Made by a program: the position numbers and the translations under genes. The notes below the pieces were generated by a model that saw only the letters and a program-made list of their open reading frames with translations, had not been told where the DNA came from and did no database searches. 64,000 nt of DNA from Auanema rhodensis (taxonomy: Eukaryota > Animalia > Nematoda): positions 4,526,001 through 4,590,000 of the forward strand of contig OZ059895.1 of the NCBI GenBank assembly GCA_964057225.1, in the 5' to 3' direction. Of the stretch, positions 2 through 62,398 are shown piece by piece (within the stretch, counting starts at the first letter, position 1; the number at the start of each line of letters is the position of its first letter).

Positions 2-3000
2 CTCGCAAATCGATTCGTATGATTCTTCAAAATGTTTCTGCAATTCCTCTTGGATCATTGTAGTAGCATACTGTAAATGATCTTGGGCTATTTTGTTCGA
101 TATATTTTGACGAAACTCTTGTACCGAGTCAATTTTCGTTGCTATGTATCTCGCATTTGCTTCCACTAAATTTGAGGTTTCTACTGATGGTGTTGAAGAA
201 GCTCGGTTTTTTCGAATCAATGTTGGAGAGGCTTCGGTTGTCTCTTGTATTTTTGGAATCTGTGCGTCTTTGTATATGGCATAGCTTCTTGTTGTTGTTG
301 GCGAACGAGCGGTTGATGTTGTGGTGCGTGCTGTTGTCGCAGCGGTCGTGTGAGGCGCCGTTGTTGATGGCTGTTGCTTCCATGATGGTGCTCTTGTGGT
401 GGTTGATGCATTTGTGTGAGGATTGTTCGTTATTTGCGGCTGTATTGTGGTAACTGATTGGATTGTTCCCTTCTGTTCGATCAAAGGTTGGACTGGTGTC
501 ACAACCGCGCCGCTAGCCGCGCCGCCTGCAGCGACGCTAGCCGCGCCGCCTGCCGCGACGCTGGATGTCCGTGTTGCGATTTGCCGAAAATTTGTTTCAT
601 TTTCCTCTGCCATTAAGATTTGAAGTTGTTCTTGTGTTATCCTACTTGATGTATAAGGTGTTTTTACATTATTGAGCAGGGGTAAAAATATTTCCAATAA
701 TAATTTCTTTGAAAGATTGCTGGGCTTGATCAGCTTAGGGTGTGGACCGATCGGTATTCCATAATTATTCTTCCTGTCATAAAATAGTTTATCTGTATTT
801 GGCATGAATTGTCGTGATGCTGGCAATTTTATAAATTTTCTGTCATCAATAAATGCTGCAGTTTTATTCCATCGTACTGTTGTGAGGGTTTTTAGTTCTC
901 TTAGTAAATTGATCGTTGCCTTAATGAATTCGCTTTTCTTCTGTTCCTCGTCAGTTAGTATACGTTTCCTTATTGGTGGCATTTGTATGAACGTTTGTAG
1001 GACTTCTTGTCGTGATGGAACTGTCAGTCCTTCTTCAATTATAACTGGTGTATTGGTTAAATTGAGAGCTATGCTTTCAATTCGTTCGCGATATGAACCT
1101 TCTTTCTTCCTTATGATTTCATCGAATTCGATTACTGTCAAACGATCTGATATTTGTTCGAGAAGCTGTTCAGATGTTAAGTATGATATTGCTGCCTTTG
1201 TAGTAATGGCTAATTCTCTTTGTGCTATATAATATAGCAGAGCTTCTTCTTTATCACTGAAATCGTATTGCTTGAGAAAATGTCGAACAGAATGTTCATT
1301 TATTTGAATTCTGAAGAAAAATTCGAATTTTTCTTTATGTGATGTTATCCATGCCTTTAGAGAGTATGTTGGATCTACTAAACGTCTTCCTTTGATTATA
1401 GGAATAATTGAAGTAATACCGGGATTACTCATTAATGGTCTTAGGAAAGTATATGGACAGACGTGAAGCAATACTGTTTCATAATCTTCAACTTCGTTGA
1501 TCCGATCTTGATCCAGTGGGAAAGAACATCCTTCGGTGACTGCACGTTTTGGTCTTTTAAACGGCAGCTTTTTGAACTCTCTTTCAATAAGGGTGGTTAT
1601 ATTGTTGTCGTTTGGAAATTTAGGAAGAATGATATAATTTCCTGATGTCGTATGGAACGCTGGCTGCCTGAAGCAAGAAGAAATAGGTTTCGGAGTTGGT
1701 TTGCTCGAAAGAATAAGTGCCGATTGTGTACTAGGGATTAAAATAGTATCTTGACTAATGATAGCGTCATATGTATGCATATCGATGTAATTACAACGTG
1801 AAGCAGTGGTTTGTGGGTCCCATATTATTATTGATGTACTTGATTCACAATTACCATGATGTGCATTGCATCCTTCCGTGTTTAATATTAAGTTTGACAA
1901 TATTGTATCGTCAGGCATACGGGTCATGACTCCGCGCTCTAATATTAGACGTGACCGCTCCTCGCACGCGTCGCGGTTGAACGCGCGCGCTGGGTCATAG
2001 GAGGGCTCCGGAGTTGCTTGGGTGATACTATCAATGCGTTGCAGTTCTATGTTATTCCACTTGCGATCGCGGATCGCCTGTCTGCATTCGCGCTCTCCTA
2101 TAGGCTGTATTCTATTTATTGTTCTGTTCGTATCGCGGAGGAATAGCAGGTCTCGTACGCATAACTTGTGTACTTCCTCTGAACAACGCCACGCATCCCA
2201 TTCGTGTGCTGTGTGATTTCTTGTGTACAGATGAACTTCTGTACGTAGCACATGGTTTTTCTCTGTTAATCTGCATTTTCTGATTGTTGGTGGCATAAGT
2301 AATGCGCCTCCTGTTGCTCTTGTACAGATTTGATATGTAGATGCACAGGGCAAGAATATTGCTGCTGTTATTGCCATGATAACTGTGAGCGTCAAAGGCG
2401 AAAGGGTGACAGAGTTTATTCTTGTTGAGCTTCTATCTCTTCCTCTTGAGTTGTCTCTTGGATTTTTGAATTGAACTCTTCTTTGTCCGTTGTTGTTATT
2501 GAATCTGCCTCGTTGGTTGTTATGACGAAAATTATAATTTCTTTGATGCCAATCAGAACTCGATTGCCTATTATCTTGTTCGTTATAATTTGTACGGCGA
2601 TTATTATTAGCGAAAGAACCGTAACGGTTTCGATTATTATTGAAATTAGAAAAGTTTTTATTTTTTTGATAATTTTGATAATTTTGATTATTTTGATAAT
2701 TTTGATTGTTTCTTATCATTTGGTTATCGCGTTGATAATTGCGATTAAATGTTTGGCTATCTCGTCTCTCATCATTACGCGCAAAGGGTGCTAGTGCTTT
2801 GTTCACAGCGTTGACCAACATCGATTGCGTGTCTGTTGTTTGGTTCACTATCGATTCCTCCCAGCGAGCTGCTTCAATCGCTTCTGTGAAGGATTTTGGC
2901 TTTGCTCGGATCACAGCTGGTTTTAGAGAATTTTTAAGTCCTCTGAGGAATGTTGATCTCAGTATTTGATCTTTATGTGGGTCATCAGATGCAAATGCAC

Positions 3001-4150
3001 TCAGTGCCATTGTTCTTAATGCTTGGGCGTATGCATCAATTGTCAATTCCCCTTGCGTGGTGTTTTGAAGGTTAATAAGTGCAGGGTCTTGGTTATATTC
3101 AGGGCAGAGCTTCGATGTTAGTGCTCTAATCAGATCATTCCACGAACCAGTTGTTTTAAGTTGTTCAGGAACTTGTCTGTAAGCTTCTTCTGCTGCTTCA
3201 TTTTTGAGAAGCAAAGGAAGAAGTGCTAACCTTTCAGGGATAACAAGGCCAATGGCATTAGCAAACAAGTTGAATTTACCCGTAAAATCACGGAAGTTAC
3301 GACTGCCGTCGTAAGTTGGACAGTAAGGCGAAAGTAAGGCTTGCGCGATTGTTGTTTTCCCTGCCCCAGGTAGTGAGGAAACAGCTTCCGTCATGATGTT
3401 ATTCGTACGGGTAGATGGTATTTTGATCGTTCTACCTGTTATTGGTGGGGTCTCCAAAATAGGGGTTGTTTGCGTGGATGGAATAGGTCTATTGGGTGCC
3501 TTAGGAAGTGAGTCTGTTGTTGTTAAGATGGGAGTAGAAGTTTGATGAATACTGGTATTTGGTGCAGGTGGTTGAATTGGTGAGATATTAATGTTAGGGA
3601 CTGATGAATATCTGCTTTTGCGCTTGGTGTTGAAAGTTTTATCTTTAGGCGAAAGGTTAAAAAGATCAGTAACAATGTTTCTAAGAGAACTAAGCCCACC
3701 CGCGCTAGAAGTTTTTGAAAGTAAAGGGGAATCGGTTGGTTCGGTTAGTGAGAGAGAGAGAGAAGCGTCGCTGATGTTTTGATTTTTCTTATTTTTATTA
3801 GAATTAGAGGAGCGTACCTTTTTAGGAGTGATCGGTGTTTGTTCCTCCACAATGATTGATAGTTCTTCTTCTATAGTAGGTACGTAGTCCGGGTCGCCTA
3901 GTTGTTCAGTAGGTGAGACAGAATCAGTAGTAGGAATAAGGAAATTATCCGGCTTCTTGTCGACTTTCTGCTCCTCTTCTAATATAGCGACGTCTTGAGC
4001 TCGAGCTCGACTTCTGGTAAAGGGAGCTGAGTCTTGGGAATCGAAATGCGTACTTATAGGTACGGCTGAATGGAATCTCTTAGCCACCTTGCTAGAACTC
4101 TTGGTTTGAAAAAACCTTGAGTGCTTGGTAACGTGTGGGATGTTGAGACG
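2..4150 (-). CDS. Gag-Env polyprotein (Gypsy capsid, N/Q/R-rich linker, signal peptide, gB-like class III fusogen); 3' end outside the window
   Basis: Manual translation is stop-free from 4150 to 2; first in-frame ATG at 3394. Capsid ~3330-2850 (CPTYDGSRNFRDFTGKFNLFANA...LQNTTQGELTIDAYAQALRTMA...FLRGLKNSLK...PKSFTEAIEAARWEE). Hydrophobic segment LSPLTLTVIMAITAAIFLPCAST, then YQIC at 2335. Cys-rich ectodomain, furin-type RPKR at 1555-1544, Thr-rich tract ~570-170, and a gB central-helix-like LQYATTMIQEELQKHFEESYESICE at ~75-2. Confidence 0.8.
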
Positions 4151-4348
4151 TTAAAGAATGCGGTGAATAAGGATGAGGATGTAGGCAAAATGAGAAAGGC
4201 TTTGGAGAGCGACCGGTGTCGTATCGACAACTTGTGAGAATGAGGTCGATGCCTTGGCCAATGGCGATGGATCCGCCTTCTACTGTGTGATATCGAGACT
4301 CTGGTGCTCTCCGTATTTTCTCTGTAGTTGAAAATCTGATTCACAAAA

Positions 4349-4363
4349 CATCTGGGGTGACCA
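4349..4363 (-). promoter_or_regulatory. Putative tRNA primer-binding site
   Basis: Minus strand reads TGGTCACCCCAGATG, starting 3 nt after the ...AATAACA LTR end. The cognate tRNA was not identified. Confidence 0.55.
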
Positions 4364-4366
4364 AGC

Positions 4367-5237
4367 TGTTATTTTACAAAACGTTTAGTGTAATTCGTAA
4401 TATTCGTTCAATTACAGCACATTTTACTGATTTGTATGCAACCATTTTCCTCATGCTGACTAAACTTATGTTTTGTTACACTAGTTTCTCGACCATGTGG
4501 TGTGTCATCTTGCAACAAAACTTATGGTGTAATTCGTAACATGCTTTTGATAAAAGAGCAGTTTAACAATAAATGTGCACCAATTTCTCTTTTGTGACCA
4601 AAAATAATTTTTGTTTCTTTACAATCTGGTTTTCAAATACATTTGGTGTAGCTCGCATTTTTCGTTGTAACAAAAGTCATGGGATTCGTAATATTAGTTT
4701 TACAAAAGAGCGTTTCGCAATGATGAATGTAGGTATTTCGTGATCAGAAATCGAATTTTGAAATAAAAGCAGAGTTAAATGGCTAAATATTACAAGAACT
4801 AGTATTAAAGTTGGAATAAGGTTCAATGCGTGAGTCTTATGCTTCTGAACAACAATAACGGTATGAGGAAGGTGACATTCAGTAAGGGGAGAAAATCCAA
4901 ACCGATATGCTTTAGCCAACACGACCTGTGTTAATCATGATTCAAATTCGAGATAATATTTTTCAACAGGATTTTTCGGACTATAGCGATCTATAAATTA
5001 ACAATCCTCCCTTTTTGGTGAGGTTTCCCGTGTAATTTTTTTTTCATGCGTACTGATTATAAATTTGGGATGTTAGAAGCAAAATTTGTCTGAACGAAAT
5101 CGTAACGCAAAATAAAATAGTCCTGATCGCAAAACAAACTTCATCCACGAAATATAAAGATATAACCGAAGTTATTCTTTCCTTGAAGCCAAAATTAATC
5201 CTTAAAAAGGAGAAAGCGTGGGAAATACGAAATAACA
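4367..5237 (-). repeat. Candidate 5' LTR (871 bp)
   Basis: TG...CA ends with 8-bp inverted termini TGTTATTT / AAATAACA, and it abuts the PBS. The second LTR is outside the window, so the outer boundary is unconfirmed. Confidence 0.55.
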
Positions 5238-5953
5238 ATTACTTTAGGTGAATTTGTTCACTAATTCAGCCTAAAGCCCTCATCAAGCTTCAAGGTTGGG
5301 TAACAGAGCATTTCAGATGTTATAAGCAAGGATACGAAATTTAAAGGTTCAGACGAAAGAATTTTTGTGAACAAACGGGAAAATAATAATCTCGAAACGT
5401 ATAATCCTTCTTTAAAAAAAAAGGATTCCTTGCCTCTGTTCCCATTTAACGTTGTTGGCCCCTCCGTATTGTGTTAAGACATAGAGTAGATGGTATGAGA
5501 AAAAGAGAGATGAAAGAAATTTGAAAATGAATTAACAACACAAACATTAAAGAGAAGGAAAAAAAAATTGTGATAAGTTCGAGGTGGAACCTCCACGTTC
5601 CGTTATGCTCCCGCGTCGATCTTACAGACCAATGGAGTCTACAAGATGAGCGTGGTAGTATTCCAGATGTAGCGGTTAAACATGGAGCATAAGGATAAAC
5701 ATAAGACTCGAGAAAGATTGGTTTATTATATCTACGTGATTACAATAAGATACATATAACTAAGTAAAGGTTAAACTAATAGAGAACAGAGAGAGAACGA
5801 CCAACCATCCATGATCGTCCCTGAGGCAAAGCTGAAGTGTTGTAATATGGAAAAGGGCGGGTCGTCTTCTCTCAGTCTCGCATTCTCTGACTCTAACCCG
5901 CCTGCTACAGCTTCGTCATATGAATGTAATGCATTGATCATCCGAATGGAACG

Positions 5954-32995: not shown

Positions 32996-33841
32996 TCAAA
33001 AAAGAATCTTGGACTGGAACGAGGTTCTTCGCTCATAGTGGGTGAAGAAGGTTTTTTCTGAAGCCCAGTTAGCCGCCTTGAGGATGTCGCCTATAGGTAG
33101 ACCTTGCGCTAGTGCCTTCGAGGTCACAGCCGAGCGTGTTGAGTGAGCTTTGAAGGTAGTGGGTATGCCCGCGCTGTGCAGGGTCTTTCTAATCCAACCA
33201 GAAATGGTGGTGGGTTCCACTGCTGCTCCATTCTTTCTGTTAAGAAAGAGGCATCTTGTTCGGCGGAGTTCCATGGTTCGAGATAGGTATTCATTTATGC
33301 AGTTAATAGGGCACAGGTTATTGCGTGTGGGGAAGTTCTCGAACTTCGCTTCATGCGGGGGTCCCTTAGATCTGTTTTTATTGCGTTTATTTATGAAGAA
33401 AGTTAACCCTTCTGCGTCGATACGCATGTGATCTAGGGAGAAAACGGCCAATTCGCTCACCCTCTTTGGAGAGCATAGGGCCAATAGAGTGGCTAGCTTG
33501 TGAGTGAGAGACTCTAGGCTGAGTTGGACGTTGGGGCCCAGCCTATCAAGGAAGTCCAAGACTTCGGAGGGGTCCCAGGTGTCTACGTACCTAGCCCCTG
33601 AAGGCTTCTCTCTGAACAAACCCCTCATGAGGCGGAGGAGCAGCACGTTCTCCTTTAGGGAGGGGGAGACCCCTAGGTGATCGGCCAATGCGGATATCGC
33701 TACCTTGTGTATGCGTACTGTGGAGAAGGCCTTAGTTTGAGCGAGAAATGATAGATAGTTAGCAACCGTTACTGGGTTGGGAGTAAAAGGTATCTTCTGC
33801 TTATTGCAGTAAGCTTTCCAGTTCTTGAGAGCACAGCCGTA
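32996..33841 (-). pseudogene. DIRS tyrosine recombinase, C-terminal part (split by Maverick A)
   Basis: Catalytic motifs PKRVSEL, CP, HSTRS, AANW and HY are present. The first residues of the ORF-track protein come from the Maverick TIR. Confidence 0.93.
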
Positions 33842-34470
33842 AGTAGAGAGCCATGCCGAATTTACTAACCACGCCCCCAAACAGTTGCTAAAAACATACT
33901 TTTGGGGGCGTCAGCTGCTAAAAACATACTTTTGGGGGCGTCAGCTGTCAAAATCATATTTTCGGCGTCAGGTGTCAAAAATATACTTTTCCTCCCGATG
34001 CAGGCTCTCGAGCCTGCGCATGAATCAAAATGCATGATTTTTTTTTAAATCTTTTTAAAAATTATTTTTTAATGTATTTTAAATGAATTTTTATTATTTA
34101 TATATTTGTTAATTGTATTTGTAAATATTTTCAAACTTATTTCTTTTTAAATGTATTTTTAATATTTATATATGTTTTAAATATTATTATTTAATTATTT
34201 CTTTTTAAATATATTTTTAAACTTATTTCTTTTTAAATGTATTCGATATTAATATATTTTTTAATTGTATCTTTAAAACTGAATAAATTATTTCTCATAT
34301 ATATTGTTTTTTTTATTTATTTAAATAAATTTAAAAGGTAATCAATACGTTCACTGTACCTCTTATGGGTTAATCAATGGAACTCATATCGAAGGTTAAT
34401 TCGATAAGAAGTAATAAATATTTAAACTAAATTTAATGAAACACATATCGAAGGTTAATTCGATAAGATC
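33842..34470 (+). repeat. Maverick A left TIR (imperfect, ~630 bp)
   Basis: Inverted match to ~50113-50741. Contains ~30-bp tandem sub-repeats (33882-33990) and the hairpin gcaggctctcgagcctgc (34000-34017). Confidence 0.9.
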
Positions 34471-36469: not shown

Positions 36470-37576
36470 TTATACATTTAAATTTTCTGCATCTATCCAT
36501 TCATTAAAGTTGTCGGGATAGCCACTCCATTTTACAAATACTTGGCGTTTACCATTTCGTGTACGCTCTTTCAAAACTTTCTCAATATAGTACTGGTTGC
36601 TTTTATTAGTAGCCAACATAAGTTCAGGCTCATAGAATATTCCCTTTATACGTTCACCATTATAATCTACAAGTTTATACACGGTTGGGTTCCCGGCTAC
36701 AATCTCATCAATTGTGAATAGTTCCATTGTATATCCAGACTCGTAACTTTTTTTAAAAGTACGCCTGTTCTTGCTTATGCGAACATTATCACCAATTTTG
36801 AATCGGTTGCGAACAGCTGGTGCATATTCTTCAACGAATATATTTGCTGTAACATCTACGGGGCGCATTTTAATCGACCGATTATAAGATTTGTTTATTC
36901 CTTCGACCAAGTCATCTAGTATATCAATCCATCGATGATTATTCTTGTAATAGAGATATTTCATCATGCGCGTTTTTAAAGTTCTATTTGCTCGCTCCAC
37001 CATTGCCGCCTTTTGTGGTGAACTTGTTGATCCATGCAGTATGGCAAATTTTTTGAATAGTTTTTCACAATGACTATTATAAAACTCTGCACCGTTATCC
37101 GTTATTAGTTGGATTGGTATAAAATCCTTGAATACATTTTCAAATGCAGTAGCAACCTCTAAACCACCTTTAGTTTTCAAAGGCCTAACATATAACATGC
37201 GTGTATAAACATCAATCATGGTCAACATGTAAGCATAGCCGTCATTTGATTTTTTATATTTTTGCATATCAACCAAATCTGCTTGCATTGTTAGGAATCG
37301 ACCACAGCCTCTAGTCTTTTTAGTCTGCATATGCAGTCTCGTTGGTTTATGACGTGTAAAAGTTTCAGAGTCTTGCAAAAAACTTTCAACTTGTGCTTTT
37401 GCGATGCCATGCTTTCGCGCTTCCAATATTAGATTTTTGGCAGACGTATAAGAAGCTGGATGCTTAATATTATAATAAATGTTCTCCAAAACATTACTTC
37501 CATAATCTAATGTAGAATCGTTTACGGCCTTTACCATTCTGTGTTTCTCCCGCCTGAGGTGTGTAATATGATTCAC
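36470..37576 (-). CDS. Maverick retroviral-like (rve) integrase with C-terminal chromodomain
   Basis: QADLVDM, IDVYTR, TDNGAEF and VERANRTLK (DDE core); C-terminal YYIEKVL...VKWSGYPDNFNEWI. Confidence 0.96.
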   Translation of the reverse strand: MNHITHLRREKHRMVKAVNDSTLDYGSNVLENIYYNIKHPASYTSAKNLILEARKHGIAKAQVESFLQDSETFTRHKPTRLHMQTKKTRGCGRFLTMQADLVDMQKYKKSNDGYAYMLTMIDVYTRMLYVRPLKTKGGLEVATAFENVFKDFIPIQLITDNGAEFYNSHCEKLFKKFAILHGSTSSPQKAAMVERANRTLKTRMMKYLYYKNNHRWIDILDDLVEGINKSYNRSIKMRPVDVTANIFVEEYAPAVRNRFKIGDNVRISKNRRTFKKSYESGYTMELFTIDEIVAGNPTVYKLVDYNGERIKGIFYEPELMLATNKSNQYYIEKVLKERTRNGKRQVFVKWSGYPDNFNEWIDAENLNV

Positions 37577-38411
37577 CAGTGTCAGCGGGTTTTGTCTTTT
37601 TATTTATAGCTTTGGATTTAAATGTACGACGCGGAGAGGGTGAATATCGAATAACAGCCTTACGGTGACGTGGTGTTCTAGGTAATATATTAATAGTAGC
37701 ATCCAAGTCTGTGACAGCCGATGTGGATGTAGGCACGGGCTCAACTGAATCCTTGTTACTGACGGCAGGCTCTACATTTTTTGCCTTCTTATTAGGGCTA
37801 GAGACCCCATTACTGGCTAAGAATTTGGCTAATACTGAGAATCCATTGGGTTCCGTTTTTGTTTTATCCAGTACAAAATCCAAAATTTTTGTAATATTTG
37901 TGTTTGGTACGGGCTCATTATTAATCACAAGTTGGTTATTTTTGTTTGTACGCACCTCTGGAAATCTTTCCCACAGATCGTTGTACTTTCGTGGCAGCTT
38001 GTATTCTGGCAATAATGGTGGATCAGCATTTTCCACTTGTACTGATATAGGCGCATCTATGCTTTCTCTATAGTTTTTGAGACGGGTGGTTGAGAAGTTG
38101 AGACATCTTTTAAAACCAAAATAAGCAATTCCACATGAAATTATTGTTTTCAATTGTTTGTGTGAAATCGTTGCCAATAAAGTTTTAGCCTTTTCGGGTG
38201 TGCGTATCAAAGCTATTTGACGTAATAATGAGGATATGGGCAAAAGGGTTTTATATTCCTTGTTAGTTAAGAAGAAATTATTATTTTTCACAATATTAAA
38301 TACAATTTCAACAATAATTTCAATTTGTGAAAAAGAAAATGAGGAAACAGAACAAGGGGTTTTGGCACAAGAAGATAAAAAGTTGTAATTTGACAAAATA
38401 CGACCACTCAT
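37494..38411 (-). CDS. Maverick conserved hypothetical protein (possibly two fused modules)
   Basis: 305-aa ORF between the ATPase and integrase, with a C-terminal QNGKG protease-type motif. Its start is repeated in copy B at 63898. Confidence 0.7.
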   Translation of the reverse strand: MSGRILSNYNFLSSCAKTPCSVSSFSFSQIEIIVEIVFNIVKNNNFFLTNKEYKTLLPISSLLRQIALIRTPEKAKTLLATISHKQLKTIISCGIAYFGFKRCLNFSTTRLKNYRESIDAPISVQVENADPPLLPEYKLPRKYNDLWERFPEVRTNKNNQLVINNEPVPNTNITKILDFVLDKTKTEPNGFSVLAKFLASNGVSSPNKKAKNVEPAVSNKDSVEPVPTSTSAVTDLDATINILPRTPRHRKAVIRYSPSPRRTFKSKAINKKTKPADTGESYYTPQAGETQNGKGRKRFYIRLWK

Positions 38412-38423
38412 TGAACATGCACA

Positions 38424-39048
38424 TTAAACACTGAATATATTTCTGGCTACATAAACAATAGGGTGCTCCGCAGTTATATCTGATAGTATACGCTGTTTCT
38501 CATTTGTTAAAGGATGGTTGTCAATCAGTAAATGACTATAGGGTGTAGACATTGTATCATCATATGCTTCTAGAGCATTTTTAAAGCGGGGGCCAAATAA
38601 TTGTTGCAGACAATTGCGTATTTGTAATATATCCGAATGACTTTTCATTAGTATTATATATGTACTATTAATTCGACTGGTCCTGTCGAGCTGAAATGCA
38701 GCTTGCACAAGATTAAACACTGCCAAATTCCAGTGATGTGCCCACACTGTAAAAATGTTGTTGAGTAATTCTTTAGCGGCTTTATTCGATGAGAAAAAAT
38801 TCATCAAATCATCCAGCACTAGTATGGTGTTTACTCCCTTTTGCTCGAAATTGAATAACTATTAAACGCTCATCATTTAATGGAACACCTGACGATGCTC
38901 CACATTGACTGAACCAGAATATTCTATCAATGGGGACGTTGAAAAACTTTTCAGTATTTTCACATATACGTTTTATAAGGGTAGTTTTACCACATTGCGT
39001 TGCCCCTATTACAGTTGTCTGACTGGGTAGTTTGAAGCTGAAAACCAT
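38424..39048 (-). pseudogene. Packaging ATPase (A32/FtsK-like), frameshifted in copy A
   Basis: Walker A GATQCGKTT and Walker B LVLDDLM lie in different frames. Compared with copy B, 27 bp are replaced by 4 bp at 38847-38850. Confidence 0.92.
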
Positions 39049-39127
39049 AATCAACCACTCGTAAATGTACCTATAATGCAAATGATTTCATTTATACTAG
39101 TGTGCACGCATCAGGTGGTGGTCTCTG

Positions 39128-39985
39128 ATGGATGATTTTTACATTACTTTGCCGTCATCAGTTGACTCTGAAAAAAGTAATACCTCATCAGTGTTTCTTA
39201 CCAGGTTACCTGAAACATTAAGGCTACGCAATAACAGATATTGCATTGGGCTGACAGACATAATTTTTCCGTGTTCGATATTAAATGTACAAGAAAATCT
39301 TTCTTATACACTACGTTTTTCCAACAGAAAGTTTATTCTGCACTTACCCAAGGGTAACTATGCAAATGGTGATGAAATAATACGCAGAATCAATGCTGGA
39401 AAAGAACAATTTATTGCTAGTAGCACTAAACCTCTTGGAGCTGAGGAAGAAGCACGTATAAAGGGTTTAATAGATAAAGATGAAGATGTGAAAAAGTGGT
39501 ATAATAATCGACAAGCTGAGGCTAAACTTGTCAAGGAAATGCTGGCAGACGCCACGTTTCGGTTTAACAAAACACTACAACGCATAGAGTTTGTAACAAG
39601 TAAGCGGCTATTATTGAATGCAACACTCGGTGATGCTCTCGCATATTTTCTTGGCTTTGAGAATAAAATTATCAACGACACGTTAATAGCCAGGCGCCCC
39701 ATTGATTTTTCAAATAACATTAATACAATGTATATATATTGTGATATTGTAGAATATTCCATTCTCGGTAATGTGAAAGCTAATTTACTTGCATGTTTAC
39801 CTGTACCACCTCCCACTGAATTTGGTAAAATGATTGCCAAAACGTTTAATCCTATTCGTTATGTACCAATCACTAAGCAAACACTCGATACTATACGTAT
39901 TGAAATTTTAGATGAATTTGGCCGCCCTATGCAATTTAATTATGGTTCTACAGTTGTTACATTACATGTTAAAAATGTGAAATAA
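39128..39985 (+). CDS. Minor capsid (penton-like) protein, intact
   Basis: N-terminal DDFYITLPS...F.TRLP and C-terminal MYIYCDIVE...F.PIRYVP...IRIEILDEFG...TLH, typical of Polinton minor capsids. Confidence 0.88.
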   Translation: MDDFYITLPSSVDSEKSNTSSVFLTRLPETLRLRNNRYCIGLTDIIFPCSILNVQENLSYTLRFSNRKFILHLPKGNYANGDEIIRRINAGKEQFIASSTKPLGAEEEARIKGLIDKDEDVKKWYNNRQAEAKLVKEMLADATFRFNKTLQRIEFVTSKRLLLNATLGDALAYFLGFENKIINDTLIARRPIDFSNNINTMYIYCDIVEYSILGNVKANLLACLPVPPPTEFGKMIAKTFNPIRYVPITKQTLDTIRIEILDEFGRPMQFNYGSTVVTLHVKNVK

Positions 39986-39990
39986 ATGTT

Positions 39991-40440
39991 TTATTCAACA
40001 GTTATACAAGACCACATTACGATTTTCGAAGGTTTAAAAGGTAGTTCAGCGCCGTTTTGTTCGATGCGCGGCTCGTGTTGTGAATATTCTCGGTTACTAT
40101 TGCAGCGGCATCGTTTTGGTTCGGTTGACTGTACAAACTCCTGAGTTTTTTCAGAGGGTTCGCTGGTATCATTTCCATCACCATCTTTACCATTCGTTCC
40201 ATTACTATTATGAAGACGCCGAATATGACGCTGACAATTGAATCTTGTTCAATAAGGGCACAAACGTCTACGAACACCATCCAAATGTCCATATTTTTGA
40301 ATAAAGTCAGCATTGCTGATATAACTGTTACATACGGGTTGAATCCCGTCATGTCTTTTCAATATGTGATCACTAAAATGCTTGACTGATGAAAATATTT
40401 CCTTGCACGTAACACAATACTTGTTACATAAAAGTTCCAT
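39991..40440 (-). pseudogene. C2H2 zinc-finger gene, truncated in copy A
   Basis: A 15-bp deletion relative to copy B near 40250 creates CPY-TGA inside the second finger. Confidence 0.8.
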
Positions 40441-40481
40441 TAGAGGAAAATAAAAAACAACCACACACAGTCAACTCACTT

Positions 40482-40652
40482 TTATATAATGAGTGGAATA
40501 ATGACTAGTGTAGTACAAAAGCCTAGTCCCAGAGATATTCCTTTAATGAATGGCACTGAAATACGTTTCAAAATCTTTTTGTACAGGGGTGTTGGCACAG
40601 ATTGTTCCAACGTGTATCTTATACATAATTCACAGTGACAGGGAATATTCAT
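40482..40652 (-). CDS. Small (56 aa) CxCxxC protein with a C-terminal hydrophobic segment
   Basis: MNIPCHCELC...GISLGLGFCTTLVIIPLII; open in both copies. Confidence 0.5.
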   Translation of the reverse strand: MNIPCHCELCIRYTLEQSVPTPLYKKILKRISVPFIKGISLGLGFCTTLVIIPLII

Positions 40653-40698
40653 AACTGACCACCTAATGTAGCAGGTGACGTTTTAATGGCAAAGTTGA

Positions 40699-41154
40699 TC
40701 ATATGCTAGATAATTTATAGTCGAATACTTTATGCATAAACGCTTTAATAAAGACATCATCGTTTTGTAATAGTTTAAAAAATGAACAAATGCTTTCAAA
40801 TGTATTACCAGCTGACAACATTAGTATTACAAATATTGCATAACCACCACAAGTGTATTCAATTATGCGTTGTGGTTTGCAAGTATTAACTTTTACATTT
40901 TTATATTTGGCCAGATAATGACGAATGTACTTGTTCATTTTATAACCCAAGCTACAGAAAAAGTAAGCTTGATCATTACGTACAAAGATGACTTGCCAAT
41001 GTGTGCCCGGTTTATCGTGTGTGTCAGTATTTACAACAAGTGCAAAGTTCTTTCGACGTGTTTTGGGTAGAGTATCGGCGTTAAATACACCGAAGAATAG
41101 TTTTCGAGTGATGCGGACAGATCGCAATAGTGACGCTATTTCAGACGAATACAT
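40699..41154 (-). CDS. Adenain-like cysteine (maturation) protease
   Basis: VVNTD...PGTHW and Q...TCGGYA motifs. Confidence 0.92.
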   Translation of the reverse strand: MYSSEIASLLRSVRITRKLFFGVFNADTLPKTRRKNFALVVNTDTHDKPGTHWQVIFVRNDQAYFFCSLGYKMNKYIRHYLAKYKNVKVNTCKPQRIIEYTCGGYAIFVILMLSAGNTFESICSFFKLLQNDDVFIKAFMHKVFDYKLSSI

Positions 41155-41204
41155 TTAGTAAAATGATCTAGTGTAACTTTTGTATTGCGCACGTGCGGTT
41201 CAAT

Positions 41205-41657
41205 ATGCCACACCTCCTTCTAGACTTGAACTCAATTCAATGGACAACACTTTTGAATCAACAAATGGGTGGGGCGCCATTTAGTGGAATGATGTTTCAA
41301 CGTGGTATGCAGAGAGGTCATGGCCTGGGTGGTATACTGGCAACTTTGGCATCGTTTTTACCTCGCATTATTCAATCACCTATAGCCCAAAATCTCATCA
41401 ATGCTGGAAGGAATGCATTATCCAGTGCTGTAAGCAATAGTCCAGTTGTAAACTCACCTCTTGGCGGCCAGTTGCTAAAAACTAGCAATGAAATTGTTGA
41501 TGGGGTGCTCAAGGGCGATAATATCAAGCAAACTCTTAAAACAGCCGGCCGGCAGGCTATACGAGATCTTACCGGTTTGGGCAAGCGGCGACGACGCAAA
41601 ACCACAAAACCTCATAAGCGTCTGTGCATAACTCGTGAGCGGTCGTATCGTATTTAA
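41205..41657 (+). CDS. Virion core or membrane-lytic precursor-like protein
   Basis: QMGG and QRGHGLGG protease-type sites, then an amphipathic helix and a basic tail (GKRRRRK); directly upstream of the major capsid gene. Confidence 0.7.
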   Translation: MPHLLLDLNSIQWTTLLNQQMGGAPFSGMMFQRGMQRGHGLGGILATLASFLPRIIQSPIAQNLINAGRNALSSAVSNSPVVNSPLGGQLLKTSNEIVDGVLKGDNIKQTLKTAGRQAIRDLTGLGKRRRRKTTKPHKRLCITRERSYRI

Positions 41658-42992
41658 ATGGCTAAATTGATAGATTCAAAATCAGCACAAGCACTTTTAC
41701 CTAATATTAATTATAGTGACATACCGGCGTCGGCATTAGGTGTTGAATCCACTCGTACTGTACAAGTTCCTTTAAAAAATACTTTTCTTCCTCAAGGACC
41801 ATGGGAATTTGTTATAGCCCAAAATTCCAAATCATTTCTTAATCTGAGAAGGTGTTGGTTGAATGTAAAATTCAAAATTGTAACCACAAACGGTGATCCA
41901 GTACCAGACAACCTTGTTTTTGCACCATGCCAACAATTTGCAGCCAGTTTGATACACTCGTATCATTTAAAAATTGGTGATGTTAGCGTGTATGACTCTA
42001 CCGTAAATCATGCCTACAAAACATATATTGAGAATATTCTAATGTATAGCAACGATGTTAAAGAGAGCAAACTTGCCATATCAGGCTATTATGCGGATAG
42101 ATATATAGATAATGCAGCCAGTCCTGGCTTTAGAGCGCGACAAGGGCTTGTTAAAAATGGCATATTGTGTGAGATGGCTGCTCCCATCAGTATCGACTTA
42201 TTCAATCAGGAACGACTGTTTGTAAACTATTCAAAAATGGAGCTAACTGCATATCCAAACCGTGATAATTTCTTAATTGACACACTTGGATGGAATAATG
42301 AAAGCAAGGATGCTGCAATGAAGGAGGAGTTTCCAAACCTGAAAATAGATATCAACGATGTGCACTTGCTTATTCAAGAGTTTGATCTAAACGCTGGATT
42401 AGCTATGGCTATAGAAGATAAACTTGTAAAGGAACGAATACACTACCCCATGACGTCAGTGAAAATGCGCTCTTATTTCATAGAAGGAGGCCGTTTGGAT
42501 TCACCCAATAACATATTATTCACGTCGCATACACCGAAACGTGTTGTAGTAGGTCTTGTCGGCGCACACGCCTATAATGGTACTTTTAAACATTCGCCAT
42601 TCAACTTTAAACCGTTTGAATTGAAAAATATATACTTGACGCTCAACAATCGGGTAATACCTACCCGCCCTTATAATTTAGAATGGCGTTCTTCCTATGC
42701 CACAGCATATATTGACATGTTGGAGGGTTTGGGTCTTGGTCGTACAGATTCATCCAATGGTATTACACCAGCAATGTATAAAACCGGCTTCACATTTTTT
42801 GTATTTGATATTTCACCGACTGTACACTCGTCCGAGTTATTTGATGTTATACGACAAGGTAATGTGGCCCTGAAATTGGAATTTGGTCAACAAACGCCGC
42901 AAGAGGGTTTATATGCTATTGTTTATGCAGAATATGACTCTATTCTTTCAATTGACAACAATCGTGCTCCATATATTGATACCAGTTTGTAA
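41658..42992 (+). CDS. Major capsid protein (double jelly-roll)
   Basis: 444 aa; GP.EF, P.RVVVGLV...AYNG....SPFNF.PF and G.TFFVFDISP motifs typical of Polinton MCPs. Confidence 0.93.
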   Translation: MAKLIDSKSAQALLPNINYSDIPASALGVESTRTVQVPLKNTFLPQGPWEFVIAQNSKSFLNLRRCWLNVKFKIVTTNGDPVPDNLVFAPCQQFAASLIHSYHLKIGDVSVYDSTVNHAYKTYIENILMYSNDVKESKLAISGYYADRYIDNAASPGFRARQGLVKNGILCEMAAPISIDLFNQERLFVNYSKMELTAYPNRDNFLIDTLGWNNESKDAAMKEEFPNLKIDINDVHLLIQEFDLNAGLAMAIEDKLVKERIHYPMTSVKMRSYFIEGGRLDSPNNILFTSHTPKRVVVGLVGAHAYNGTFKHSPFNFKPFELKNIYLTLNNRVIPTRPYNLEWRSSYATAYIDMLEGLGLGRTDSSNGITPAMYKTGFTFFVFDISPTVHSSELFDVIRQGNVALKLEFGQQTPQEGLYAIVYAEYDSILSIDNNRAPYIDTSL

Positions 42993-43130
42993 TGTATGTA
43001 ATAAACTCTTTAAAACATTTGATGAGAAGAATAAAATTTATTAATACAACTATACATAAAAATCTATAAATACAACCATATACAAATATACACGCGATAA
43101 TAAAATTTATAAATTCAAATATATTAAAAA

Positions 43131-46100
43131 TTATTCACAATAACCATAGGGTAAAGTACTAAAATCGTCTAGATAACAAAGTTTATCCATTACGACCTTG
43201 GTACTCTTTGTCATGTCCATCGTGGATATGGCACCAAGCTGCCTCTTTAATAACGTTGTTTTGGTTTTTAAAACCAATTTTTCTCCATCCATCACGAGTC
43301 CTCGAACCAATCGCTCCATACTTTGATAGTTTACCACGGTGGCTGCCGTGTGGTCCAGCGTCTGTAATTTTAAAAAGTTTCTCAATAATATATTTTTATA
43401 CTTACCACTCCCTTTGCCTTGGTGATATACTTGACCTGACCAGCTGCATTTACTAGCTCATAACTATAAACTTTTGCAGCTGGTGAAACAAATTTGGTCA
43501 TTGACCAACCATCGGGTATTTCTGAGGTTAGTTTACCTAACCATTCACCCTTCATATCCTCAATTGGATCAGGCTGATCGAGGCATTTTAAATAAATTAG
43601 AGAATCGGTGTCTAAATGATGTACGTTTAAATTGTATACAAAGTATAAAATTACCTGTATACACCAAGTTCTTTCCAATTTTTTCCATTGCCTTATACAA
43701 TAGTAGCCTTGCATGAGCGGTTGTATAAGCCGCTATGGCTACATTTGTAAACGGCGCTGGTGCCAGGTGTGAGTCTTCTGGCACTGTTGTACAGTACGCC
43801 ACATCGTCCACAATTTTGAAGCCCGTGAGTTCCCTTGCAGGATCAGTTATGATCCTACCAATTTCAGGATCCTCAACACCAATAATCTTGGTTTGGGCTT
43901 TATCCGGTCTTTGACCCATTTTACCCCATACACTATAAACAAATTTGTAAATTTTTATTTTTAAAAGTTTACATACCTATTCAGCTGTAGTTTGGCAATG
44001 CTACGCATGGCCGCATTCTTTTCAATTTTGTTGCTATCCAGAGCAACACCAGTGTTCTCCTCGTGCTCTTGGAGATATTTTAGCTGTAAAATTCTATTTA
44101 ATGCCATACTTTTCATGACACATACCTTTTCAGCCTCTGTCATATTTGGCTTAGGCCAGCCCGATGCCTCTTGCTTAATTTTTATGTACTTTTGTACAAA
44201 ATCCTTGAATAGGCCGCCTTGCTGCCATTCATCCCAGTGCCAAACCTCATAAACATGAAGCACTTTGTAGCCACGCTGTATGGCACATTCGAGCTCTACA
44301 TGCGTTACAGTCAGATGCAGCTTTCGAGCGTCTTCATCATCTTGGTGCGGGCATGTTACATTTTTGCCTCTGTTTGCACATGTGCGGCAGTTTGTAAAAA
44401 TTAATTTACCGCCTATGCGTGTTCCTAATACAGGATACATCAAATTTGTGGGTGCAAGCACGTCACATTTCACAAGGCCCTTGTATGGGCAGCATGCCTC
44501 AAAACTCTCAAAGCCCTCAGTAATCACTTTAGGATTACCCACAGGGTAATAGGCATCAAATGCCGTTACATATGGATAAAGTGAACAAAAGTCCACATAC
44601 TCTAGTGAGTATCTATCCGAAGCTTGGGCCAGAAGCTTATATGTTTGAGTTCGGCCGCCGGTGAAGGCATCTCGAGGTGCCAATCGAGTTACAACCTCAG
44701 TGTCCTTCATAAAATTTGCCATTTGCTCATTTGATGACATTTGAGCAGTAATTTCGTGTTCCCACACAGTGGTTACACTAATGCCCTGGCTTTGAATAGC
44801 CTCAAGCCTTTTCATGGTTTTTTCATAAACCTAAATGTTTCAGCTTAAAATGATTAAAAAAGTCACAATTACCTCTTCCATTGTTTCACCATTTCTGCCT
44901 GGTGCAATAGCAGTCTTGTTGGTGCACTGGGGGCAACCATGATAAATACAGCCATTAAACTACAAAATTTTATCATTTTTTACATTTATTACAAATTACT
45001 CACCTCATAGCCGTGATTAGCCACACTGTCATAAGCATCAAGTAGATAGCGTTGGCCATCTACTCGCACAACAAATTCACCACCATTAAGCTTATGCATT
45101 AATGGGCGGCCTAATCCGTGTTCTAGCCATTTAATGTATTTTATGGCAATTATACTCTGCTTCTGGCCGGCATAATAACCAGTCTCAGGCAGAATACCCA
45201 CTTGGTTCTCTTTAATGTGGTTCATTTTCAACTGTAATATACTAGTTTTGAAAATGCTTGTATTTTAAAAAACTTGCCTGGAATAAAGAGAAACTGGCAA
45301 ATGTCATACATTGTATGACAGGATTCCAGCCAGTGGTGGCGGTTGCCAACTTCATGTACACTTTCATACAGTTGGTTAAAATACGGACATCTGTCCTACA
45401 ATATTCCAGAAGCTCCTCATCAAAATCAAACACACTTTGATTACGCTCCTCATACCAAATATTGAATGAAGCTAGGTCTTCTGCTTTCATTCTAGCAGTA
45501 CAATAGTAATGCTTTGGTGGCAAGGATGGTAGCACTTTGCCATAATTTATTGGGTGGTTAAAGAGGTATGGGAATTGTCCTTTACTCATATCAGGTACAC
45601 CAAATGCCTTGGGTAACGCTGATAAGGGTAAAGGCACTAGTAAATAACTATCTTTAAAACATAAATGGTTAATGTTTTGACCTCTTAATGGCTTGACAAC
45701 CATGCTAATAATCTTGGTCCCATTTAAAATGGGGTCAGGATATATTCCACGGTTTATCAGCCTAGACACCAAGAAATGTATGTCAAAGCGCGACCCGTTG
45801 TGCGCAATCAAAATTGCATTATCATTCTCAGAAAAGTTGAGTAACCAATCAAGGAAACGATCTGTTACAGACCATTCACTATCACCTTGTTGGTACCCAA
45901 AATGGCCCTCCTTGGTTGTGCATTTCTCACAGGAATTGGCATCTATACAACTTTCACAAAATTTGTTATACACAACCATATTGGGCCATTGTTCATCTGC
46001 ATATTCATGAACATTTGTGCCGTTTTTTAACACAACTGTTTCAAAGTCATAAAATATAATCTTAAACAAGTAAGCATTACACTTGTAAAGATGTTAAATA

Positions 46101-48900
46101 CAAACCTTGAACTTTTCTTGCTTCTTTTTTAGCTGAGCCTTCTTCTTGTCGTTAGGTGGAACCCAACAACAAGAGTGCTCTTCAGGCTTTGTCTGACCGC
46201 ACTTTTTGCAGAATTTTTCATTGCAATTGTGCGGTCTATCAGCACGGACCATGTGATAGTGATCACACGCCACACATGTCTGAATTTAAGCTTGTTATGT
46301 ACAACTTTAAATTTTCACAAAATACCTTGAATTTTCGGCAGGCTTTTCGCAAATGCCTATCGAAGCATTGTTGAGTTTTAAACAAAACTCTACAACTATC
46401 ACACCTCACGCTACTCTCAACCACATTCCCCATCGCATTACAATTATAGGTGTGGCATTTTTTACATTTGGCTTTACATCTATGCAACACTGTATTGTAA
46501 GATAACTTACAGTGTTGACATATAATACCATCAAAAATTTTCGAACGACTACCAGCTGTAATACAATCATAGTGATTATTTCGGTAACCTAGTGTTACCA
46601 ATTTGCTAGCCGCTTCATTAAATATTTTCTGGATAGTGTACATACGCTGTCCAGGCGGTCTAGCATATACTACAAACTTATAGTTTGTATTACAGCTGGC
46701 AATAATGTTTAAATGAATTAAATTATAATTTGGTAAATCTACAGAAATACCACACCTATTTAATAAATTGATATGGTGTGGCTGATTTGGCAATAAGATG
46801 TAATTGCGACGAAGGTTTTGCAGCCTTCGCTTCTCATCGCCATCTTCAGTGGCCAGCTCGTCAGCTTTCCACATTCCCACAACTGCTGATCTAGCCAGAC
46901 AATGTGAGTCAGTGTTGGCAATGGTTCCAGGTATTTTGAGTTCGGGGTCAAAATAAAACCCGACTCTACCTTCACCAGGCATCAGGCTTGGCTGCGCTGG
47001 CCTTTCATCAAACACATACATCTCAATATTCATTGCCTGGCTGATCACAGCCTCTCGTTTTGATTGCTGCACCTTGCTGATGGCATTCATAATGGCTACG
47101 CCATCCAGATGCTCCCTTCTACGAAAGTCCATAAATATGGAGCCCTTTTCAAAGGAAGGGTGCTCAATTGATAAACAAAATAAGGCTTTTTGCTTATCAG
47201 GCACACCGCTTTCAGCAAGACAACGATCAAGGAATTCGTTGAATAACCGCGGCATGATAACATGCATTGGTTCATCAACATTTTCCAAGTGTGGGAACGT
47301 GAGCGATCGAACGACCACGTTGGTAAAACGACCGGTGCGTTTTATGCGCCGGTGTGACCACTATAATAAACAACATTTATAACAGTTTACATGCTTTTTT
47401 TATTTTTATTTTTAAAAGTTTAAATAAAAATAGTTTTAAGAATATATATGAATTGTTTCATCTTTTGCTTAAAATTATTATGTCTCTTTGTTTGTTATAG
47501 TCGTTATTTTTTTTTTATTTAATTGAAATGTTTTCAAATATATGTTTAGTTTGTTTCAAAACGATTAGAAAAATACAAAATATTTAAATGTTTCAGTTTT
47601 TGAGCATCATTTTTTTTTTTAATGTTTAAAAATTTAATAAATAAAAATTAAATAATAGTAGAATTATAAAATTGTTTAAAATATATATAAATAAAAGAGA
47701 TGAAGTGAAATGGTTTAGAAAATACAAAATATTTAAATGTTTCAGTTTTTGAGCATCACAATATTGAAATTTAAATGTTTTTTAGTGATTAAAAATTTAA
47801 TAAACGAAATTATGAAAAAGTGATAGAAATTTAAATTTGTTCAAGATATGTGATTAAATAAAAGAGATGAAGTGAAATGGCTTAGAAAATATAAATCAAT
47901 TTCATGTTTCAGTTTTTGAGCATCACAATATTGAAATTTAAATGTTTTTTTAATGATTAAAAATTTAAAAAATGAAATTATGAAATAGTGGTAGAAATAT
48001 AAAATTGTTTAAAATAGATGAAGTGAAATGGTTTAGAAAAAAAACAAAATATTTAAATGTTTCTGTTTTTGCGCATCAAAATATTTAAATTTAAGTGTAA
48101 TTTAATGATTAAAAAGTTTAATAAATAAAAATTATAAAGTAGTGGTAAAAATTTAAAATTGTTTAAAATATGAAATTAAATAAAAGAGATGGAGTGAAAT
48201 GATTTGAAAAATACAAAATATTTAAATGTGTCAGTTTTTGAGCATCAAAATATTTAAATTTAAGTGTATTTTAATGAATAAAAATTTAATAAATGATATT
48301 ATGGCATGGATTTGGGATAAGATTTTATTTTATTTTTCAAAAAGCCACCAAATGTATGATGATTTGTTTAAAAATAGATGGCAGAATTCAAAATTGCTCA
48401 AGATATGTAATCAAATAAAAGATATAGAGTGAAAAGAATTGTAACATGAAAAAAAAAAAAAAAGGTTAAAAGCTCGTACCTTTATTTGACAAACATCGTT
48501 GAAGGATGAACCGCCTCCTAATTGTTCTCCACTAGTTGATGGCATCTCGGGATTCCATTCTCTGGAAAAAAAAAATTTCATGCTTTTTCATTATATGATA
48601 GCTTACTCATTATCGCTGTCATCCAAGGTGATAACTTCAATAACCCTTGATGACGAGGGACCACTATTGGAAGTGGTTATTGCGGGGTCACACAGCTCAA
48701 CACCACCACTCTCGGTAAGTTTTATGCGCTTACTAAAAAAAAAACAAAGATGTATATTTTAAAAATATTGTTAAATTACCTGAGTTGATAAATTTCCTCA
48801 TAATCGAACCCCAACTCTTCACATACACGCTTATAACTGAAAATAAATATTTTAATTAAAAAAAAAAAGATAGGAAAAAACACAACCTGTTAGCAGCCAT
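43131..48900 (-). CDS. polB: Protein-primed family B DNA polymerase, 14 exons, ~1370 aa, intact in copy A
   Basis: Exons 48900-48887, 48836-48780, 48732-48607, 48561-48480, 47360-46326, 46279-46106, 46060-45278, 45231-45004, 44959-44873, 44830-44126, 44083-43977, 43932-43655, 43611-43406 and 43361-43131 (4113 nt, stop-free). Motifs FYDFET, HNGSRFD, YCRTDV, DFCSLYP, KLQLNSVWGK, YTDTDS and KAKG. The first four exons are less certain. Confidence 0.9.
47560..48300. repeat. Degenerate ~150-170 bp AT-rich tandem repeats inside the 1.1-kb polB intron 4
   Basis: gatgaagtgaaatgg...aaatgtttcagtttttgagcatc-like units recur near 47699, 47867, 48017 and 48188. Confidence 0.8.
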
Positions 48901-50741: not shown

Positions 50742-51170
50742 GCCGTACTGTTTGCGTGTTCCTGGGGCCCAGGATTCGTTTAGGAGTCTCTTAGTCTCTG
50801 CTGTTACTCCCTCAAAGGAGTTTGTTAAATCTTCCACGCTGCTAATTGGAAATTCGGCGACTGCAGGAGAGGATGTGGGTTTCCTTCCCGGTCGGACAGC
50901 AGGTTCGGGTGTTGGAGCAGCAAGGGAGGCTCCTTGGATCTCTCTTGGAGTAGGGGAAACCACATTTGGCTCTTCCAGAATGGTGCTATCACTATAGCCG
51001 ACCTCTGGGAGCTGGCGAGCTTTCCTAAGGTCTTGTGCAGGAGGTGGAAAGGTGGAAATACGTAAAGTAATCCGTCTGGCAGCTGCTGCCAATTGAACAA
51101 GAGTGCGTTCACTCCTAATGCGGCGCAATCTGGAAAGAAGGAGTAGAAAAGGGCGCATTTGGCGTTCCAA
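50742..51170 (-). pseudogene. DIRS tyrosine recombinase, N-terminal part
   Basis: ...LLNESWAPGTRKQYG rejoins in frame to CALKNWKAYC (from 33835 downward) once Maverick A and one TSD copy are removed. Confidence 0.88.
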
Positions 51171-51623
51171 GTGGACGCGAACAGGTCTATTTTGGGTTCA
51201 CCCCATTTGGAAAATATTGATCTAGTGATCTCCGGATGGAGCGACCAGTCTTCCTTCAAAATTCTGCCGCGGGACAGGCAGTCGGCAGCCGTATTGATTT
51301 TTCCCGCTATATGCGATGCTCTGATTCTGAGCTTACGGGTATCGGCAAATTGCCATAACTCCAGTGCTAATCTAGTGCCCTTCTGGGATTGACTCCCGCC
51401 CCTACGGTTGATGTAGGCAATGGCAGAAGTATTATCTAAGAGTAAGAGAACGTCGTGATTGCGCCAGGTCTTGCCGAACTCTGTTAGACCCTTCGTTGCT
51501 GCAATCAGCTCCAGCCAGTTTATATGGTTGTTAATGCGTTCTGCCTCGGACCAAGATCCTGACAAGGTATTACCTTCCCACGAAGCGCCAAAACCCTCCA
51601 GGGAGGCATCTGAGGTAATGGAG
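50825..51623 (-). pseudogene. DIRS pol ORF C-terminus: RNase H and DNA N6-adenine methyltransferase-like domain (cut from the upstream RT by Maverick B)
   Basis: ITSDASLEGFGA, HINWLELIAA, LLDNTSAIAYINRRGG, HIAGKINTAADCLSR, followed by IDLFASTWN and YVFPPF. Confidence 0.93.
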
Positions 51624-59237: not shown

Positions 59238-59375
59238 TTTTTAATATATTTGAATTTATAAATTTTATTATCGCGTGTATATTTGTATATGGTTGTATTT
59301 ATAGATTTTTATGTATAGTTGTATTAATAAATTTTATTCTTCTCATCAAATGTTTTAAAGAGTTTATTACATACA

Positions 59376-60710: not shown

Positions 60711-61163
60711 TTAAATACGATACGACCGCTCACGAGTTATGCACAGACGCTTATGAGGTTTTGTGGTTTTGCGTCGTCGCCGCTTGCCCAAACCGGTAAG
60801 ATCTCGTATAGCCTGCCGGCCGGCTGTTTTAAGAGTTTGCTTGATATTATCGCCCTTGAGCACCCCATCAACAATTTCATTGCTAGTTTTTAGCAACTGG
60901 CCGCCAAGAGGTGAGTTTACAACTGGACTATTGCTTACAGCACTGGATAATGCATTCCTTCCAGCATTGATGAGATTTTGGGCTATAGGTGATTGAATAA
61001 TGCGTGGTAAAAACGATGCCAATGTTGCCAGTATACCACCCAGGCCATGACCTCTCTGCATACCACGTTGAAACATCATTCCACTAAATGGCGCCCCACC
61101 CATTTGTTGATTCAAAAGTGTTGTCCATTGAATTGAGTTCAAGTCTAGAAGGAGGTGTGGCAT
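60711..61163 (-). CDS. Virion core or membrane-lytic precursor-like protein, copy B
   Basis: Translation identical to A; synonymous SNPs near 61005 and 61023. Confidence 0.7.
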   Translation of the reverse strand: MPHLLLDLNSIQWTTLLNQQMGGAPFSGMMFQRGMQRGHGLGGILATLASFLPRIIQSPIAQNLINAGRNALSSAVSNSPVVNSPLGGQLLKTSNEIVDGVLKGDNIKQTLKTAGRQAIRDLTGLGKRRRRKTTKPHKRLCITRERSYRI

Positions 61164-61213
61164 ATTGAACCGCACGTGCGCAATACAAAAGTTACACTAG
61201 ATCATTTTACTAA

Positions 61214-61669: not shown

Positions 61670-61716
61670 TCAACCTCGCCATTAAAAACGTCACCTGCTA
61701 CATTAGGTGGTCAGTT

Positions 61717-61887
61717 ATGAATATTCCCTGTCACTGTGAATTATGTATAAGATACACGTTGGAACAATCTGTGCCAACACCCCTGTACAAAAAGATTTTG
61801 AAACGTATTTCAGTGCCATTCATTAAAGGAATATCTCTGGGACTAGGCTTTTGTACAACACTAGTCATTATTCCACTCATTATATAA
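61717..61887 (+). CDS. Small CxCxxC/hydrophobic protein, copy B
   Basis: Same 56-aa ORF as 40482-40652. Confidence 0.5.
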   Translation: MNIPCHCELCIRYTLEQSVPTPLYKKILKRISVPFIKGISLGLGFCTTLVIIPLII

Positions 61888-62393: not shown

Positions 62394-62398
62394 AACAT

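Follow-up and report, generated by a model that had tools for sequence, protein, structure and literature searches.

A gypsy-type capsid and a gB-type fusogen in one open frame of Auanema rhodensis: the probable 5' half of a GAG-ENV-POL element

The DNA analysed here (the window) is a stretch of 64,000 nucleotides from Auanema rhodensis (contig OZ059895.1, positions 4,526,001 to 4,590,000). At its left end, the minus strand carries a long terminal repeat (LTR), a primer-binding site (PBS), a leader and a long open frame that runs off the window. Read 5' to 3' on that strand, the features are as follows.

5596..5953, minus strand: 5' LTR of 358 bp, CGTTCC...GGAACG (from the loose ends of other copies and the satellite start at 5954)
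5584..5595, minus strand: primer-binding site TGGAGGTTCCAC, tRNA-Gln type (from sequence; adjoins the LTR)
4151..5583, minus strand: AT-rich leader of ~1.4 kb (from sequence)
3395..4150, minus strand: ATG-less, stop-free stretch of 252 codons, S/T/P-rich, 5' of gag (shuffle test)
2846..3322, minus strand: Ty3/gypsy capsid, aa 277-435 (Pfam PF03732 and PF19259, own profile)
2423..2845, minus strand: N/Q/R-rich linker without zinc knuckle (composition; comparison of gag-env chains)
2804..2815, minus strand: VNAV, candidate viral-protease site after the capsid (motif enrichment; putative function)
2408..2419, minus strand: INSV, candidate viral-protease site that may free Gag from the signal segment (motif enrichment; putative function)
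2336..2410, minus strand: internal signal-like hydrophobic segment, aa 581-605 (hydropathy)
1556..2335, minus strand: N-terminal part of Env with a class III fusogen fold, gB domain I/II region (AlphaFold and Foldseek)
1544..1555, minus strand: RPKR, furin-type site (from sequence)
101..1543, minus strand: Env insert of ~500 aa, predicted helical over aa 870-1190, then S/T-rich (comparison with P0002 and P0015, low-confidence model)
2..85, minus strand: start of a gB-type central helix (domain III), truncated by the window edge (P0002 alignment and profile)

On the minus strand, positions 2-4150 hold 1383 codons without a stop, and the frame is still open at the window edge. A first-pass annotation of this DNA had reported a stop-free frame of at least this length, and the frame is real, the longest in 200 shuffles being 176 aa. 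Its absence from the list of open reading frames is probably due only to its running off the window. Among 15 substitutions listed within the frame, 9 are synonymous and none creates a stop; near the frame start, 3 of 4 differences are at third positions, a number too small to judge a bias. The earliest ATG is codon 253 (nt 3394). None of 2000 shuffles kept the 252 codons 5' of it free of stops (shuffle mean, 12.5 stops), and comparison of this ATG-less extension with the homologues' own extensions gave no sequence match. It is possible that the frame is entered by splicing or at a non-AUG codon.

The proposed Gypsy-type capsid was supported by Pfam, with Retrotrans_gag (PF03732) matching at aa 315-406 (E 4e-6, exceeding the curated cut-off) and Ty3_capsid (PF19259) at aa 310-440, under the curated cut-off. 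The frame gave no Pfam match to DUF1759 or Peptidase_A17, which are BEL/Pao features. The following linker (170 aa) has a combined N, Q and R content of 45% and contains no CCHC, as had also been described. CCHC is missing from 38 of 44 gag-env chains (query included). The linker is likely an equivalent of the RNA-binding nucleocapsid.

By hydropathy, the strongest hydrophobic segment of the chain spans aa 581-606, with YQIC next at 606, the position at which a signal-like stretch had been claimed. A hydrophobic segment lies immediately N-terminal to Env in 39 of the 44 gag-env chains (query included). An AlphaFold model of aa 606-850, based on a 59-sequence alignment, reached a pLDDT of 91.8. 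In a Foldseek search against the PDB, every match listed was a herpesvirus gB (E 7.1e-11 for the best one; TM by query 0.51-0.60). In BFVD, the glycoproteins of Keturi virus, Beihai rhabdo-like virus 3 and Nyavirus ranked highest and gB came next (E 8e-14 to 4e-11), and nyamivirus G matched the model with E 4.3e-12. An ESM Atlas query with the Env N-terminus returned no usable match. Thus, the class III fusogen match on which the first-pass annotation had staked its reading was obtained, both with herpes gB and with nyamivirus G, and a gB-like fusogen follows gag in frame via an internal signal-like segment.

The RPKR that had been pointed out is located at aa 866 and is the sole R-x-[KR]-R site of the chain; RTKR occupies its place in P0002, the closest homologue. 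The claim of a Cys-rich ectodomain was borne out in part: aa 606 to ~850 are gB-like, but ~500 residues without a family match precede the central helix. This insert, ~510 aa between the gB-like halves, begins 24 aa ahead of the furin site. Among 45 non-BEL homologues with both Env halves, the gap between them has a median of 87 and reaches 400 in three; the median in 14 BEL/Pao rows is 41. The insert between gB domains II and III varies from 27 to 511 aa. Identity of the query insert to P0002 is 48% over aa 870-1060 and 21% in the diverged S/T-rich end, and the 190 aa that follow the furin site are also related to P0015, another Auanema protein. The model of the insert is helical and unreliable (pLDDT 45). 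Word-index, ESM Atlas and wide fold searches assigned the insert no family or fold: the best Z in the wide fold search with the insert model was 3.8 and uninformative, the ESM Atlas matches (0.78-0.83) lay below the lead threshold, and the word-index search gave no match. The last is a weak blank, as are other blanks of this index, since P0002 plainly has the insert and was nevertheless missed. A 24-nt repeat in the env insert (505-562) has one unit fewer, in frame, in contigs of 3/3 DNA runs.

The LQYA helix, said to resemble the gB central helix, begins close to the window edge, with LQYA at aa 1359. The final 28 residues (1356-1383) fit the beginning of a profile of the central helix derived from homologues (E 1.4e-7 in a single comparison) and align with P0002 aa ~920-946, a collinear part assigned to PF00606 and PF24664 by Pfam. 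Both findings argue for the resemblance.

A HMMER search with aa 604-873 of the query Env returned 112 proteins at E<=0.001, or 113 with P0002. The Pfam scan covered 52 of the 112, so that BEL/Pao and Pol labels are lower bounds. Gag and env share a single chain in 43 of the 113 homologues; the domain order, for which a search in other genomes had been suggested, is therefore not a one-off. Env is followed by protease or reverse transcriptase (PR or RT) in at least 24 of the 113, gag, env and Pol occur together in at least 18, and at least 13 with this env family are BEL/Pao pol-env chains. No Pol is visible in 25 of the 43 gag-env chains, most of which end inside Env. A related-locus search found no loci in viral contigs and none in metagenome contigs.

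When the whole protein was used in the word-index search, P0002 was the only match, with none among longer proteins. P0002 is an unnamed and unannotated protein of Auanema sp. JU1783 (organism as given by its source). It is 40% identical to the query over 1020 columns (59% in the Env N-terminal part, 55% in the gag tail) and combines in a single chain gag, env (PF24664/PF00606), a TM at 1159-1193, a protease at 1287-1373 and the start of RT, early in which the chain ends. In a quick env tree (95 env pieces, no bootstrap, rows with <180 profile positions excluded), the query was sister to P0002 (SH-aLRT 100) within a 10-row group (99). The named members of this group are Auanema, Pristionchus and Caenorhabditis, and it contains no BEL/Pao row. 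Eight of the nine other members are named as nematode proteins, and four of the nine carry Pol. P0118, which clusters at 90% with group member P0008, is a chain of 2341 aa with the complete gag-env-PR-RT-RH-IN set. P0120, one chain of 2593 aa, carries a motif of the Env published for Cbre_errantivirus_2, as given in the available part of PMC13524379, and through it the query is homologous to this element (24% over 280 aa, E 5e-16). In the Caenorhabditis relative P0016, the protease and integrase zinc-domain matches each occur twice, an internal duplication.

The LTR ends form a 6-bp inverted repeat with CG..CG in place of TG..CA, and the loose ends of other copies fall at 5596 and 5953/5955. 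The four bases next to the 5' LTR read CTCA. The PBS, TGGAGGTTCCAC, is the exact reverse complement of that listed for Clat_errantivirus_4 and Ctro_errantivirus_1 (PMC13524379, Supplementary file 1). Among 36 published nematode elements in the accessible part of the same source, the site is identical in 2 and of Gln type in 8. The leader contains no ATG-started frame of >=40 aa and no credible Rfam match; a mir-14 match was dismissed as chance (25.5 bits vs a gathering score of 53).

A polypurine tract (PPT) lies ahead of another LTR copy in 4/4 runs (X1, X2, X3 and X7), indicating that two-LTR copies exist. The window thus holds a 5' LTR and a PBS, and in sister copies a PPT precedes a second LTR. 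CA comes after this PPT, and the PBS starts with TG. With these dinucleotides, the linear cDNA would carry a perfect 8-bp inverted repeat at its ends, and the integrase would produce CG-3' rather than CA-3' ends. The gag/env junction is covered by sister contigs of three studies, which differ little from the query (an X1 contig differs over 3064 nt by 12 letters and one 24-nt in-frame repeat) and reach 876, 983 and 1647 nt beyond the window edge. The element is apparently young and recently mobile. LTR depth exceeded interior depth in the contigs and was not taken as copy number. One presumed RNA run contained diverged relatives only, with no bearing on expression. For the window's own LTR/satellite junction there was no contig cover in 4 runs, the contigs showing presence and not absence.

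Further insertion sites were seen in other flanks. At one of them, an apparent 4-bp duplication, ATGT, is followed by tRNA-like sequence with an A-box by consensus; the two ATGT flanks are loose ends from different runs, 5596 (X2) and 5953 (X7), which we paired. This hints at Ty3-like targeting of Pol III genes. Over 5572-5611, many other contigs match in no more than the LTR 3' end and the PBS, with divergent sequence beyond, which suggests that several related families use this end and primer.

A candidate motif, [VI]N[AGSTNK][VIL] or, in short, [VI]N-x-[VIL], occurs at four polyprotein boundaries. The motif was picked post hoc, and half of the chains are without it before the signal. It is found just ahead of the signal in 22 of 44 chains (shuffle mean ~1.0, maximum 5), or 20 of 42 without the two chains that suggested it; after the capsid in 14 of 42 (shuffle maximum 5); and after the Env TM and at the protease N-terminus in 7 of 23 each. 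In controls, the motif occurred in 2 of 42 linker windows and in none of 218 Env windows or 13 BEL/Pao pol-env junctions. Because the chains are related, the shuffles overstate the significance of these counts. A retroviral-type protease must cut at polyprotein boundaries of this kind, and the location of the motif suggests that the protease would free Gag from its membrane anchor. Judged from sequence, the sites are likely cut by the element's own protease.

We consider it highly probable that a Ty3/gypsy LTR element has its 5' half in this region, with one frame that encodes the capsid, the signal-like segment and a gB-fold Env, and likely continues into TM, PR, RT, RNase H and integrase. 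The window itself contains the LTR, the tRNA-Gln PBS and the open frame with its domain order and fusogen fold; a TM after Env and then Pol in the same chain are seen in homologues only. Pol itself would very probably be located downstream of Env, beyond the window. The hydrophobic segments suggest a topology with Gag in the cytosol, Env in the lumen and Pol again in the cytosol after the TM. Accommodating this topology, Gag would be synthesised in the cytosol, Env would be threaded into the ER by the internal signal, and signal peptidase would cut near YQIC to free the Env N-terminus. With the Env TM the chain would return to the cytosol, where Pol would fold. Cuts by the element's aspartic protease at [VI]N-x-[VIL] after the capsid, before the signal, after the TM and before the protease would release Gag and Pol from the membrane, while furin would cleave Env at RPKR and particles would bud with a class III fusogen.

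An internal-signal topology with separation by signal peptidase, the model of the first-pass annotation, is plausible from the sequence. That model had no cytosolic cut to free Gag, a gap that the candidate motif may fill. In flavivirus C-prM-E, an internal signal tethers the capsid, and the chain is cut by a viral protease on the cytosolic side and by signal peptidase on the luminal side; any likeness would be an analogy only, between unrelated proteins and with a class II fusogen on the flavivirus side. A second, weaker hydrophobic stretch is present ahead of the protease in P0002 (aa 1254-1273), P0010 (1040-1061) and P0056 (1159-1180). A membrane-spanning role would place Pol in the lumen, and a membrane tether is therefore more likely.

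The earlier reading had allowed for either gag-env(-pol) or a pol-less element. Gag-env-pol is favoured, as the nearest relatives have Pol. A non-autonomous gag-env element mobilised by a helper would fit a window without Pol, but the sister contig that runs 1647 nt past the edge meets no LTR over that length, while Env would be expected to end at ~750 nt if collinear with P0002. Together with the Pol of the nearest relatives, this makes a pol-less element very unlikely. Pol might also be encoded in a separate frame after Env in an element of the same type, reached by read-through or frameshift, so that Gag-Env is the main product and less Pol is made. A strict 1:1:1 ratio of Gag, Env and Pol is wasteful for a capsid, and five of the 43 gag-env homologues (P0005, P0007, P0062, P0066 and P0086) finish soon after the Env TM. 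However, P0002, together with P0010 and P0118 of the query's env group, reads into the protease without a stop, and we regard a separate Pol frame as very improbable.

The fusion could in principle stem from a one-off deletion, by which gag became joined to env in an element of gag-pol-env or BEL/Pao type, given that the env family is shared by at least 13 BEL/Pao pol-env chains among the homologues. The capsid, however, is of gypsy type, and the junction is collinear in Auanema P0002, spanned by the contigs of three studies and common to 43 of the 113 homologues. These findings on the junction, among them the comparison of sister copies proposed earlier as a check for such a loss of pol, effectively refute it.

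A single Ty3/gypsy frame with Pol behind Env would place the region in the published nematode GAG-ENV-POL class, the assignment of Pol resting on relatives. The novelty implied for env directly after gag did not hold, as this order has already been published for nematodes (PMC13524379). In the available part of that paper, elements of Nematoda, Bryozoa and Platyhelminthes have gB-type ENV only, in the order GAG-ENV-POL, and the nematode order is credited to Sacco et al. 2022 (endogenous retroviruses from nematodes, termed 'non-canonical'). In the query, no Pol domain separates capsid and fusogen, and Env is of the HSV/gB type by AlphaFold, Foldseek and the central-helix profile. The frame is continuous across gag-env, with the env-pol junction outside the window. 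The window contains no RT; the capsid is gypsy-type and the env groups with gypsy-Pol chains. The elements of the 2022 study reportedly have a single continuous gag-env-pro-pol ORF and a nyamivirus-like env.

As far as the accessible part of PMC13524379 goes, the query resembles the nematode GAG-ENV-POL elements in gene order within the window, env type, gypsy capsid and tRNA-Gln PBS, and its Env shares cysteine spacing and short motifs, compared by eye, with the published nematode C1 rows. It differs from them in the ~510-aa Env insert, the CG..CG LTR ends and the long ATG-less N-terminal frame. The canonical errantivirus arrangement, with env after pol in its own ORF, is not that of the query. 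Among BEL/Pao elements, according to the available part of PMC9094657, Atlas encodes a class II env in one Gag-Pol-Env chain of 2828 aa and Tas has a gB-like env. Atlas is thus similar in placing Env within one polyprotein and Tas in its class III env, but both have Env last after Pol and BEL/Pao enzymes, whereas in the query Env lies directly behind a gypsy capsid and not in a gag-pol-env order with Pao-type gag and enzymes. Herpesvirus gB and the Nyamiviridae/Chuviridae-like glycoproteins share the N-terminal ectodomain fold with the query and the central helix with P0002; they differ in being stand-alone genes with N-terminal signals, at 10-18% identity.

CG...CG ends, the boundary motif and the ~500-aa insert were not found in the literature searched; Sacco et al. 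2022 may already discuss processing. The papers listed on non-canonical LTR ends were plant or general ones only, and CG ends are not thereby unreported. The available text of PMC13524379 does not address the freeing of Gag and Pol or the role of the insert, and its figure supplements may bear on the latter. More tentatively, and on balance doubtfully, these features may mark an Auanema-related sublineage with a CG-3'-joining integrase that targets sites just upstream of tRNA genes, own-protease [VI]N-x-[VIL] cuts at the cytosolic face of every membrane segment, and a furin-exposed helical Env domain of ~320 aa, a receptor-binding or shielding module captured in a gB-type fusogen. As the architecture is already catalogued, the element matters modestly. 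This copy is useful for its open frame and apparently recent mobility, and makes testable both the release of Gag and Pol from a membrane-threaded chain and the role of the variable insert. CG termini would hide such elements from LTR finders based on TG..CA.

The remainder of the window is rich in repeats. A 351-bp satellite (5954-32491; 75.8 copies, 98% matches) adjoins the element. A tyrosine recombinase (PF00589, E 2e-8) at 32996-33910 and, at 50825-51643, a frame that weakly matches a DNA adenine methylase are likely pieces of a DIRS-type element. Two near-identical Maverick/Polinton-like copies lie in inverted orientation at 36470-47652 and 54714-64000, with integrase-chromodomain, adenoviral-type protease and ATPase. 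Their arms are 99-100% complementary over up to 5260 nt, and the pair reflects either a recent duplication in inverted orientation or an artefact of the assembly.
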